From the sequence record PQ249395: a stretch of 64,000 nucleotides of DNA; one strand, written 5' to 3'. Shown in pieces: positions 8,952-13,007 of this stretch. Both the position numbers and the translations under genes were made by a program. Source of the DNA: Escherichia phage Pu-Krd-SF1. The notes under the pieces were generated by a model, which saw nothing but the letters and a program-made list of their open reading frames with translations, did no database searches and was not told the DNA's origin. Every line of letters starts with the position of its first letter. The stretch's first letter is position 1.

Positions 8952-9731
8952 TTATACTCTTGGACCATATATTGCTCCAACGTTTTGCCATGTCGGTGTA
9001 GACCCTATGACGGCATAACCAGCAGCACCACCGTTATATTCTGTACCGTTCCCATGAATATTACATCTACCTCCTGCTGAGCCAACTTCACCGCCATTCC
9101 CGCCTGTATATACCCAAAGAGACCCCTCACCAGCAGATCCTGCACCCGGAGCGGAAATGGAGCCAGCAGTTGCACCAGAACTCATATGAGAGGAAGACCC
9201 GCCAGCACCGAATGGGCGACCACCACCACCACCAAATGATAGTCTACCGTAGTTACCGCCGCCGCCGCCGCCGCCACCGCCTGCAATAGCTCCGCCATTA
9301 TTAATTCTTAGTCTCCCACCAATATCATTTTGAATACAATGACCCCCAGCTGAGCCAGGACTATTGCTACCGCCATTACCGCCACGTCCATACATCGTTA
9401 CGCCGTGTATATTCAACTGAACATATTCATTCGGTGTATCTCCGTACATGAAGAATAAAGGAACATCTTTAGAATATGATACTAAATCTCCAGTGATATT
9501 AAACACTATAGGTGCACTACCTGCCTCAAAACATCTATCTCGGAACCATTGACCATTGAAGTTATGGTCTGCTCCAAGTGTATGAATAATTTCTCTTGAG
9601 CGACCTGCAAATTGACTCATCCAGCAAGGAACACCCAATCTTAATTGACCAGCTGCTTGACTCATCCAGCGCTGACCCGTTTCATTTACGGCTGAACTTC
9701 CAATCCAGCCAGGAACTCCAACTACTGCCAT
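8952..9731 (-). CDS. 38: gp38 receptor-recognising adhesin, T2/T6 type (259 aa, glycine-rich motifs)
   Basis: ORF directly downstream of gene 37 with poly-Gly runs and conserved Trp/Cys-containing flanks; T4-type gp38 is a 183-aa chaperone instead. Confidence 0.8.
9256..9279 (-). repeat. (CCG)n trinucleotide run encoding poly-Gly in gp38
   Basis: CCGCCGCCGCCGCCGCCGCCACCGCC on + strand = GGC repeats in gene 38 reading frame. Confidence 0.8.
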
Positions 9732-9767
9732 AATTTATACTCCAAAGGGGGCATTTCCCCCTTGTTG

Positions 9768-12700
9768 TTAGAATTTAAAATATTTACTAATTTTGCGAGC
9801 AATTTTAGTAAAGAGAGGCGTTTTCAATTCTTTAATTTCTTCGCTCATTTCCTGAATGGCCTTAATTAAAAGCGCGTTCACAGCAGAGTTTGAAATTGTT
9901 AAAATTTCTTCTGGGTTATCCTGAGATCCGACACTAGAAGTGCTAACAGCTTCCGGTAATACTTCTTGCAAATCCTGTGCGATAATACCAATCTCATGGC
10001 CGATAACTTCGCGGTCAGAAAGAGATTTAACTTTATCATAGGTTTTAACTTTGAGTTTATTTACCTTATCCACCGCATTCTCTTCGTAGTCTTCAACATT
10101 AATTTTCAGACGACGGTCAGAACGAATATAAACATCGTTAAAGTTTCCGTTGCCAGTGGCATGAAATTCTCCGCTTGCATGGAATTGATAATCAGCACCC
10201 TGAACATGAAGAACCGCTGCCGCAGTATTATTACTATCACCGGGACAATGAACGTCCATAGCAGCGATGTAGTTACGCCCCCAATCAACCGCTTTCCAAA
10301 TAGCATGAGCACTATCAACGCTTTGTTGACAGTCAACCAACAAACCAGCAGGGCGGCCTCTCCAATCCACATAAGCACCACCAGAAACTTCACCACGGAT
10401 AAGAGCGTATTCACCATTATAAGGAACACGCTCTCCCGCTTTAATCATTGCACCCTGGAAGTGATGACTAAATGAACCCCCATGATTATTTCGTATATGT
10501 AAAATACCCTCATCTGTAGCCCAAATAACAGCCTTTTCTGCATCGCTATCATCTCTAAACCAGATATGTCGTGCACCAGTTGAGTTTTTGATGGTTATTC
10601 CGGAAGGTCCATGCGCAGTAAAATTGCCAGCAACATCAAAATTCAAACTGTTATCTGTCCTGCGTTCCGTATAGAAGTGATAACCTTTGGAATCACTGAC
10701 TTCCATCACTGCCGCGCGACCAACTTCTGAATTTCCCCAATTATTAATAGAGAATCGTTCAGAGCTATTATTCATCTGATTTAGGTATAATGTACCATCA
10801 GTGAATGTTTCGCCAAAGAAACGAGTTTTAATTGCACCTGTCGCTAAAGTACGTTCAGTGGAAAAATGGGCGCCTTGACTATCTTCTAACTGGATGATGT
10901 TATCACGAGCATTATTACTATCACCCCAATGGTTAAATTTAAAATAATCTCGTGATCCTAAACGTCCGGCGTCAAAAGTCATCACGCCTTTCATGTTAAT
11001 ACCACCGTCGACCAGAACATTATCCGGGAAGTTAACAGTACCGTCTTGATTAAAACGAGACGTATGGCCTTGTGAACCATCTTCTTTCAGATGATGAATA
11101 ACGAATGTACCCGAATTAATTTCAGTACCTAAAGACCAAACTGCTTTACCGTTTAAAAACTTCTGTTTAACAATAGGATAATATTTGCTTATAGCATCAT
11201 CATCAATTTCCTGGAAAATAGGAGCCGCTTGAGCATATTGAATGTCATAACCGCCGGCACCCGCTCCATGACCGACAAATTTAATATATCCGTTTGCTGC
11301 GAACGTATTGTAACTTGATTGTAAATCTGGAATAGTAACTTTACCAGTATCTAAAGCCATACTAAACGGGCGAAGTGGACCGATATCGCCATGTTTACCT
11401 TCACCGTAAGCAGTTGGAATAATATGAAGACTGCCTTCTGAACGTCTAAAAATGGCTCCATAATCTGCATTCCAAATGCGAAGCGCATTCACTGCTCCAG
11501 ATGAAATTTCGCCTGTTGTGTGAACTCCTCTATTTCCAGCAGTAACACCGGATGATTCAAATGAACCATTGACGTTCATTTCTACTTCACCAGTAGTAAG
11601 TCTTTGAATATAGCTCATCCAGCTAGTGGCATCAGATATTTCCATTACGTTTTTACGGTCGCCATCAATATCAGTAAAGGTATTACCCCAAACGCTGATA
11701 GTCATATTATCAACTGAACTCCATCCTGTTGTGTTACCTCTAAATAGCAGGGTAGAAGAATTATTTATACCATCAATATTAACCGAACCACCGATAACAT
11801 TAATATCACCTGGAGTAACTAATAAACCACCGTGAGTATTAATGTTTGTAGTACCTTTACCGCGGAAATAGTGATGATAATTACCGCCTTGGTAATATCC
11901 TAAAAGAGTCTGACCGTCTCCAAACGCGTTATTATCGTGGTATGTCACTACAGTAGCAAGAGCATAGTTTTCAGTTGGAGGAGTAGTTAAATCGGCTCCG
12001 TTGGTAGAATATCCAGCTACAAATTTTCTTAGGCTAGTTGTTTCGTTGGGACTAAATAAAAACGTTTTTGTTCCATTATTAACGCTAAAATAATATCCGT
12101 CCTGATGCCATTTTAAGCCTGTATCATTATCGCCAAGAGAAATTGAAGCAGTCCCTAATTCAGAGTATCCTTTATTGCCACCAGGAGTACCAACAGAAAT
12201 AGAATGGCCTGCTTTCAATCCACCGGACCAGGTAAACGACCAAAGATAAGTGTCTAAGCCATCTCCAGTATACCAAGTTATTCCATCATTATCTTTAACT
12301 TCATGGAATACACCAGCGCCTACAGCATTGCGCATAACACGGAGATGATTAATAGCAGTAGTGCTTTCAGACAATGGAACATTGTCTGCCATCGAATAGA
12401 TGTCATAATCACCCGTAGATTTATTATTAGTAATAACTTTGTTGGTCAGAATTTGTGGAGACGAAATAGATTTCCATGCTGATACTTCAGGTGAAGTAAA
12501 TAGTCCACTGCCTGAAAATGCATAAGTGCTTTCATCACCAGCGGCGTAGTCTTGAACCCTGATATTAAGTACTTGTGTAGTTAATCCATCATTAGCCGGG
12601 GCATAAATAATGCCACGTTCACGATCAGCCGAATCATGAAAACGAACATGTGATGTACCTGAACTTTTTGTAATAAGTTCACCGCCTTCAGTCATAATCT

Positions 12701-13007
12701 GCCCAGCGGCAATAATATCACGAGTTACTCGAGCAATACCAGTTAAATTAAAATTACCAGTCTGAGTGAAGACGCCATTTAAAGTATAATCGCCAGTTTG
12801 GTTATAATTGCCTGTATGAATAACATTCCCGTCAATACTACCGCCTTTAGCAAAACCCAGATCAATAATATTTCCTTGGTCATCTTTAGTAAAAAGTACA
12901 CGGTCTTTTAAGTTTATAGCCAATTCGCCTTCGGCTAATACTGAAGCGGCAGGACGTGCTCCTGCAGTTTTGCTTCTTTTAAATTGTATTTGTTTTAAAG
13001 TAGCCAT
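9768..13007 (-). CDS. 37: long tail fibre distal subunit gp37 (1079 aa) with C-terminal intramolecular-chaperone-like domain
   Basis: 1079-aa ORF in the gene 37 position; C-terminus contains an SDRRLK...coiled-coil segment typical of S74-type intramolecular chaperone domains. Confidence 0.85.
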   Translation of the reverse strand: MATLKQIQFKRSKTAGARPAASVLAEGELAINLKDRVLFTKDDQGNIIDLGFAKGGSIDGNVIHTGNYNQTGDYTLNGVFTQTGNFNLTGIARVTRDIIAAGQIMTEGGELITKSSGTSHVRFHDSADRERGIIYAPANDGLTTQVLNIRVQDYAAGDESTYAFSGSGLFTSPEVSAWKSISSPQILTNKVITNNKSTGDYDIYSMADNVPLSESTTAINHLRVMRNAVGAGVFHEVKDNDGITWYTGDGLDTYLWSFTWSGGLKAGHSISVGTPGGNKGYSELGTASISLGDNDTGLKWHQDGYYFSVNNGTKTFLFSPNETTSLRKFVAGYSTNGADLTTPPTENYALATVVTYHDNNAFGDGQTLLGYYQGGNYHHYFRGKGTTNINTHGGLLVTPGDINVIGGSVNIDGINNSSTLLFRGNTTGWSSVDNMTISVWGNTFTDIDGDRKNVMEISDATSWMSYIQRLTTGEVEMNVNGSFESSGVTAGNRGVHTTGEISSGAVNALRIWNADYGAIFRRSEGSLHIIPTAYGEGKHGDIGPLRPFSMALDTGKVTIPDLQSSYNTFAANGYIKFVGHGAGAGGYDIQYAQAAPIFQEIDDDAISKYYPIVKQKFLNGKAVWSLGTEINSGTFVIHHLKEDGSQGHTSRFNQDGTVNFPDNVLVDGGINMKGVMTFDAGRLGSRDYFKFNHWGDSNNARDNIIQLEDSQGAHFSTERTLATGAIKTRFFGETFTDGTLYLNQMNNSSERFSINNWGNSEVGRAAVMEVSDSKGYHFYTERRTDNSLNFDVAGNFTAHGPSGITIKNSTGARHIWFRDDSDAEKAVIWATDEGILHIRNNHGGSFSHHFQGAMIKAGERVPYNGEYALIRGEVSGGAYVDWRGRPAGLLVDCQQSVDSAHAIWKAVDWGRNYIAAMDVHCPGDSNNTAAAVLHVQGADYQFHASGEFHATGNGNFNDVYIRSDRRLKINVEDYEENAVDKVNKLKVKTYDKVKSLSDREVIGHEIGIIAQDLQEVLPEAVSTSSVGSQDNPEEILTISNSAVNALLIKAIQEMSEEIKELKTPLFTKIARKISKYFKF

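Follow-up and report, generated by a model that had tools for sequence, protein, structure and literature searches.

Which kind of long tail fibre tip do genes 37 and 38 of Escherichia phage Pu-Krd-SF1 encode, and which host receptor does that tip contact? We examined the two genes in a 64,000-nucleotide (nt) stretch of this genome (sequence record PQ249395; hereafter the window), where gene 38 occupies positions 8952-9731 (259 amino acids [aa], 26.0 kDa; stop codon 8952-8954) and gene 37 positions 9768-13007 (1079 aa, 117.4 kDa; stop codon 9768-9770), exactly as an earlier note, made from the sequence alone, had placed the two open reading frames (ORFs). Both genes are on the minus strand, as are all of their features described below. 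Family membership, motifs, conservation, gene order, near-identity to characterised adhesins and mosaic boundaries were computed directly, and together they make it highly probable that the pair makes up the distal tip of a Tequatrovirus long tail fibre of the T2 and not the T4 type, in which gene 38 supplies an OmpA-binding tip adhesin (gp38) and gene 37 a self-cleaving precursor of the distal fibre subunit (gp37).

With respect to family, gp38 matches two Pfam models, Gp38_N (PF21721) at aa 1-42 (1e-20, 73.8 bits against a cut-off of 25) and GP38 (PF05268) at aa 47-259 (1.1e-69, 235 bits against a cut-off of 25), which delimit an N-terminal attachment domain (9606-9731) and a receptor-binding part (8955-9593). 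PHROG 2056, "tail fiber protein; host specificity," matches as well (5e-109). The receptor-binding part also aligns to PDB 9v85, a crystal chain of the PP01 gp38 receptor-binding domain (PMC12892980), at 8e-79 over gp38 aa 38-259, and the S16 gp38 chain 6f45_D aligns to the protein almost end to end (1.7e-52). Alignment to these solved chains suggests that the receptor-binding part folds as a beta-helix with a polyglycine-II sandwich. The T4 protein of the same name is a 183-aa tail fibre assembly chaperone, and BLASTP finds no similarity between it and the gp38 of the window (E = 1.9). The earlier note had called gp38 a T2-type adhesin and had named an alignment with the T4-type chaperone as the observation that would speak against this; the Pfam, PP01 and S16 matches bear its reading out.

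The glycine content of gp38 is 24.7% overall and 37% over residues 115-245. Several poly-Gly runs had been described in the earlier note; we do observe five glycine-rich motifs with four variable segments between them, but only two strict runs of at least three glycines, G9 (residues 151-159) and G5 (167-171). The G9 motif (9255-9281) is the longest of the five, and the others lie at 9369-9389, 9198-9233, 9069-9104 and 9018-9032, one of them being GGAAG. All are present in each of 13 aligned adhesins and are 75-100% conserved among the T6-like ones; the hypervariable segments (HVS) of the aligned adhesins, in contrast, span 10 to 100% identity to gp38. These segments are HVS1 (aa 122-128, SNSPGSA, 9348-9368), HVS2 (aa 160-166, NYGRLSF, 9234-9254), HVS3 (aa 179-209, 9105-9197) and HVS4 (aa 222-233, 9033-9068), the counterparts of PP01 loops A, B, C plus D, and E, respectively. 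That such segments determine adsorption specificity, as the earlier note had proposed, agrees with the literature on this adhesin family.

At the opposite end of gp38, Trp9 (9705-9707), Trp22 (9666-9668) and Trp37 (9621-9623) are unchanged across the aligned adhesins (13/13). In S16, the gp37 trimer offers three equivalent pockets, into which one gp38 is fixed by three such Trp prongs (PMC6851490). A direct repeat of 32 nt lies inside the same domain (9594-9625 and 9639-9670, 78% identity, 45-nt spacing) and encodes the helices W22-MSQAAGQ and W37-MSQFAGR, an internal duplication that underlies the pseudo-threefold docking domain.

To place gp38 among the receptor classes, we split it into its glycine-rich motifs and the four HVS and scored identity segment by segment. 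Whole-protein identity is 54% to T2, 87% to T6, 92% to RB5, 73% to Ox2, 75% to RB32, 85% to M1, 98% to IME340, 95% to EV240 and 83-92% to FL12, FL18 and FL20, and these overall values are misleading for the receptor because the N-terminal two-thirds of the protein are conserved. Across the four HVS, identity falls from 100% for Pu-Krd-SF7 (receptor not reported) and 93% for JE01/IME340 (IME340 receptor, OmpA) through 77-82% for EV240, FL12, FL18 and FL20 (OmpA) and 56-61% for T6/RB5 (Tsx) to 32% for M1 (OmpA), 24% for T2 (FadL/OmpF) and 10% for Ox2/RB32 (OmpA). HVS1 is uninformative, since its seven residues are identical in both the OmpA "type 2" and the Tsx-class adhesins. HVS2 has a short form, five residues fewer than in T6/RB5, and is identical to that of JE01, IME340 and Pu-Krd-SF7 (7/7), with 6/7 in EV240 and 3/7 in T6/RB5. 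In HVS3, four residues (GEGS) are inserted that T6/RB5 do not have, and the identities number 27/31 to IME340/JE01 and 14-17/31 to T6/RB5. In HVS4 all 12 residues agree with IME340, JE01 and Pu-Krd-SF7, and 8 of the 12 with T6/RB5.

The set of HVS found in gp38 is thus the one common to phages whose OmpA dependence is experimental, the OmpA "type 2" class. IME340 loses both plating and adsorption when ompA is deleted from the host, complementation restores both, and a tsx deletion strain is still infected (PMC6499177). The EV240 receptor was identified as OmpA/HepI by random barcode transposon sequencing (RB-TnSeq), and moving EV240 gp38, from HVS2 onward, into phage CM8 changed the receptor of the latter from Tsx to OmpA (bioRxiv 10.64898/2026.04.02.716166). 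The adhesins of FL12, FL18 and FL20 depend on OmpA, belong to "type 2" and accept a narrower range of OmpA variants (Lutz et al. 2025, PMC12032242). Because the near-identical IME340 and EV240 adhesins are OmpA dependent and the HVS match the "type 2" class, the receptor of gp38 is most likely the Escherichia coli outer membrane protein OmpA. The alignment with T2, T6 and Ox2 that the earlier note had recommended therefore assigns a receptor class, OmpA "type 2," which belongs to none of those three alleles; the "T2/T6-type" label of that note stands for the architecture of the tip but not for its receptor, which would be neither FadL/OmpF as in T2 nor Tsx as in T6. The classical Ox2-type OmpA allele was likewise ruled out, as Ox2, RB32 and M1 share only 10-32% of the HVS residues, despite using the same receptor.

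We next turn to the other half of the tip. The Pfam model Peptidase_S74 ("chaperone of endosialidase") matches aa 963-1021 of the 1079 residues of gp37 (1e-14, 55 bits against a cut-off of 22). Over its last 150 residues, gp37 aligns with the chaperone part of the S16 protein (6f45_A, 1e-7), with the autocleavage domain of MYRF (7dc3, 0.016) and with a further phage fibre (8jov, 0.0016). The motif quoted in the earlier note, YIRSDRRLKINVEDYEEN, occupies residues 960-977, with YIRSDRRLK starting at residue 960 and 116 residues following Ser963. Within the cut-site motif DVYIR-SDRRLKI, Ser963 (10119-10121) and Lys968 (10104-10106) are predicted to be the catalytic residues and stand five residues apart, and the S-D-x-R-[LV]-K motif is kept in all 10 gp37 proteins compared. 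The homology and the Ser/Lys spacing substantiate the proposal that gp37 ends in an intramolecular-chaperone-like domain, and gp37 most likely releases this folding helper by self-cleavage.

The position of the cut is predicted by analogy. In T5 pb1, Ser1264 and Lys1269 form the same S/S+5 pair, and cleavage falls between Thr1263 and Ser1264, so that the released chaperone carries the serine (PMC4690869); S16 gp37 is cut at DLNVS^SDRRIKK, and DVYIR^SDGRLKI is predicted for the fPS phages (PMC7917993). Because S16 and T5 pb1 cut before the serine, we infer that the scissile bond of gp37 is R962|S963. Cleavage there would leave a mature chain of aa 1-962 (104.2 kDa, ending NDVYIR; 10122-13007) and release, autoproteolytically, a C-terminal intramolecular chaperone of 117 residues, aa 963-1079 (13.2 kDa; 9771-10121). 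The predicted sizes are consistent with the reported processing of T2/T6 gp37, for which cleavage is stated in PMC3157838, citing Drexler 1986. The earlier note had put the cut at SDRRLK: the motif and the Ser/Lys dyad are indeed located there, but the predicted bond lies one residue upstream of the literal S|D. As for the check that it had suggested, N-terminal sequencing of virion gp37 is blind to a C-terminal cut, and a tryptic digest cannot tell cut from uncut protein because R962 is itself a tryptic site.

How firmly the gp37 part of this account can be held depends on two points that tell against it, namely that the exact bond rests on analogy and that the structural model is too poor to test the fold. 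A single-sequence AlphaFold2 model of residues 940-1079 places helices at about 996-1016, 1040-1058 and 1063-1076 with a mean pLDDT (predicted local distance difference test score) of 41.4; it is unreliable, its order of secondary structure elements is compatible with the chaperone fold, and it bears only weakly on the helical segment that the earlier note had described after the motif. One alternative is that the C-terminal domain stays in the virion, or that the cut falls at S963|D964 instead of R962|S963. This we regard as improbable, given that the dyad is intact and conserved, that cleavage before the serine has been reported for S16, T5 pb1 and K1F, and that docking of gp38 requires an exposed gp37 end. 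A T4-like arrangement, with gp38 as an assembly chaperone outside the virion and gp37 itself binding the receptor, could appeal to the position of gene 38, which is the same as in T4. The chance of it is negligible in view of the BLASTP comparison, the Pfam assignment of gp38 to the adhesin family, and a gp37 that lacks the T4 C-terminal tip and has the chaperone domain in its place; direct comparison with both T4 gp38 and T4 gp37 led us to reject it.

As regards the receptor, several observations weigh against OmpA. Four of the five differences between gp38 and its IME340 counterpart fall within HVS3 (S184G, S185A, S191T and A200V), and single HVS3 substitutions can retarget such adhesins, as in RB51, where Q206L changes OmpF to OmpW; RB5, which binds Tsx, is likewise close over the whole protein; and phage PST, with a T6-like adhesin, uses Tsx as well as OmpA. 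One alternative, which the "T2/T6-type" label of the earlier note might imply, is that gp38 is a T6-class Tsx binder whose host range follows Tsx, in keeping with its 87% and 92% identity to the Tsx binders T6 and RB5, the shared HVS1 and the partial match in HVS4. We consider this very unlikely: HVS2 is without the five-residue YYSPF-type segment of the Tsx class, HVS3 has the GEGS insertion, the T6/RB5 matches in these two segments are low, the 98%-identical IME340 infects without Tsx and fails without OmpA, and the EV240 adhesin swap took CM8 from Tsx to OmpA. The segment-by-segment identities, together with the receptors that the nearest relatives use, led us to drop the Tsx class. Less improbable, though still a minor prospect, is that gp38 binds OmpA together with a second structure, such as the lipopolysaccharide (LPS) core or another porin, or that the four HVS3 substitutions give it an OmpA-variant range unlike that of IME340. 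RB32 depends on OmpA and responds to the composition of LPS, PST requires Tsx, OmpA, FhuA and LPS, one HVS3 substitution is enough to retarget an adhesin of this family, and type 2 adhesins accept only some OmpA loop variants. Set against this, the receptor-binding part is the same as in Pu-Krd-SF7 and at most five residues from that of IME340, for which a single receptor is reported, and the LPS dependence of relatives is ascribed to gp12, which is not in the window. OmpA remains our preferred receptor, and the four substitutions relative to IME340 could alter which OmpA loop variants are recognised.

For gp37 cleavage, the 3:1 stoichiometry, docking and OmpA binding we draw on relatives, and the resulting scheme is as follows. 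The protein would be made as a precursor of 1079 aa, the last 117 residues of which would act as an intramolecular chaperone driving fibre trimerisation and then remove themselves through the Ser963/Lys968 dyad by cutting the R962-S963 bond, leaving a mature chain of 962 aa that ends in DVYIR. Onto the new trimeric end, one gp38 monomer would dock through its N-terminal three-helix domain and the Trp9, Trp22 and Trp37 prongs. At the far end of gp38, the five glycine-rich motifs would pack into the polyglycine-II sandwich, and the HVS1-4 loops between them would make the reversible first contact with the host, the receptor of this allele probably being OmpA, as in the "type 2" adhesin group of Lutz et al.

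Published work already covers this kind of system, how it operates and which receptor near-identical proteins use; the exact gp37 and gp38 sequences of the window are absent from a collection of 15 billion proteins, and the two are new alleles of a known kind of system. The nearest characterised relative is IME340 (vB_EcoM_IME340, MH051916; Li et al. 2019, PMC6499177), an OmpA-dependent Tequatrovirus whose 259-aa gp38 is identical at 254 of 259 positions. It shares the HVS lengths, Y161, W206, V207, I225, the N-terminal docking domain and the gp37 chaperone domain, and differs by five gp38 substitutions (A73T besides the four in HVS3) and in gp37 residues of about 901-960, which are only 38% identical. 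EV240 gp38 (T4_ev240, LR597657; 95% identity) has the same architecture and segment lengths but 13 substitutions, including Y161R, W206S, V207A and I225T in HVS2-4. FL12, FL18 and FL20 have the short HVS2 and a GEGS-containing HVS3 in common with gp38; unlike the window phage, they span three genera, and FL12 and FL18 carry N-terminal docking domains of other types that match their own gp37 C-termini.

Likeness to the more distant systems is mainly one of design. T6 and T2 share with the window the gene order, the adhesin on a cleaved gp37 and the YIRSDxRLK chaperone motif, but their gp37 is largely unrelated from about aa 60 to about aa 660, and their receptors (Tsx, and FadL/OmpF, respectively) differ because HVS2 and HVS3 differ. 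The gp37 chaperone region aligns to 6f45_A of the S16 gp37(3)-gp38 tip (PDB 6F45), including SDRR[IL]K, whereas S16 and PP01 bind OmpC with different loops, and their gp37 before the cut is unrelated except for the last few residues. In the K1F endosialidase, T5 pb1 and MYRF we find the same Peptidase S74 domain, with Ser and Lys five apart, again placed where the chains of a trimeric fibre end; sequence similarity to these is distant, and the cut in the window, unlike theirs, is predicted to expose a docking site for a separate adhesin, not a receptor site.

Identity to Pu-Krd-SF5, -SF6 and -SF7, of which Pu-Krd-SF7 is the nearest genome, is 98.8% across the first 25 kb of the window, with a single gap at about 9590-11010. 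This mosaic patch of about 1.4 kb relative to Pu-Krd-SF7 was delimited by blastn breakpoints, protein profile and identity in 60-nt bins, which is 32-68% between 11027 and 9588 and 97-100% on either side. It covers gp37 from about aa 670 to aa 1079, including the chaperone, the intergenic hairpin and spacer, and gp38 aa 1 to about 48, and its closest sequence is JE01 (94.8%). The receptor-binding part of gp38, which is identical in the window phage and Pu-Krd-SF7, lies outside it. Across the 13 phages examined, the type of the gp38 N-terminal domain tracks that of the gp37 C-terminus without exception (13/13). This co-variation fits a docking interface that is inherited as a unit and a specificity domain that may be exchanged, the same pattern of docking and specificity exchange that was described earlier by Trojet et al. 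and Lutz et al. In the Krischvirus kvi, gene 38 is displaced, and the ORF upstream of it (1-263) has at its end a gp37 chaperone tail like that of T6 (FTKIARKISKYFKF), so that the adhesin gene of this phage still stands behind a gp37-like C-terminus.

Upstream of the chaperone, gp37 matches PHROG 1699 (E = 0). Its 34% identity to T4 gp37 extends only over aa 1-639; the alignment stops at about aa 640, and the C-terminal receptor-binding tip of T4 gp37 is absent from the protein. A domain like the C-terminal trimerisation domain of gp34 lies internally at aa 448-549 (11361-11666; Pfam Gp34_trimer, 9e-9; gp34 structures PDB 4uxe/5nxf, 4e-11). We also observe three copies of a WGNxF...R..V.E.SD motif, including those at about aa 692-720 and 756-782, that is found in T4 gp37 too. 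Just before the predicted cut, in aa 901-962 (10122-10307), aa 901-960 are 100% identical to JE01 and 38-45% identical to IME340, EV240 and RB32, despite the same chaperone and gp38 N-terminal domain; by this sequence comparison, the tip of the fibre appears to have another hypervariable spot in aa 901-962.

Between genes 37 and 38, the spacer encodes a GC-rich hairpin (9745-9763; mRNA AAGGGGG-AAAUG-CCCCCUU), recognised from sequence and folding and recovered in a terminator scan, directly 5' of the gene 38 Shine-Dalgarno sequence GGAG (9740-9743). The 51-nt spacer stretch containing it folds at about -14.8 kcal/mol. A hairpin is found at the same place in 10 of 10 T2-type phages compared, with stem and loop sequences that vary: the loop is a C(UUCG)G tetraloop in T2 and in Pu-Krd-SF7, and the T6/RB32 hairpin reads GGGGC-UUU-GCCCC. 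The hairpin has no Rfam match. It is a tentative and on the whole unlikely suggestion that this is an RNA element (a partial terminator, or a modulator of mRNA ends and stability or of translation) that lowers gp38 relative to gp37 to fit the 3:1 ratio, and we hold as tentatively the separate idea that the HVS3 changes affect OmpA-variant recognition.

The surrounding tail fibre cluster has the canonical T-even order 34-35-36-37-38-t, with gene 38 immediately downstream of gene 37 and upstream of the holin gene t (8265-8921, minus strand). Upstream of gene 37 are gp36 (13016-13672), the proximal hinge connector gp35 (13735-14850) and, beyond it, gp34 (14859-18728). Residues 58-127 of gp35 match the Pfam family ILEI (interleukin-like epithelial-mesenchymal transition [EMT] inducer, PF15711) at 9.7e-9, above the family cut-off. 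ARAGORN finds no tRNA genes and Rfam no families at the gathering threshold across the whole 64,000-nt window, and no NCBIfam model matches gp37 or gp38. A sigma-70 promoter scan of 8000-13800 returns 18 sites against 18.6 expected from shuffles and is therefore uninformative, with a tool that omits T4 late promoters.

For annotation, the value of these results is that the phage is predicted to adsorb via OmpA, with the narrower "type 2" range of OmpA variants, a prediction that would be useful in the choice of phages for cocktails and in host-range engineering. The mosaic patch illustrates a published point about this family of adhesins, namely that the docking domain of gp38 moves with the C-terminus of gp37, while the receptor-binding part is kept or swapped independently.

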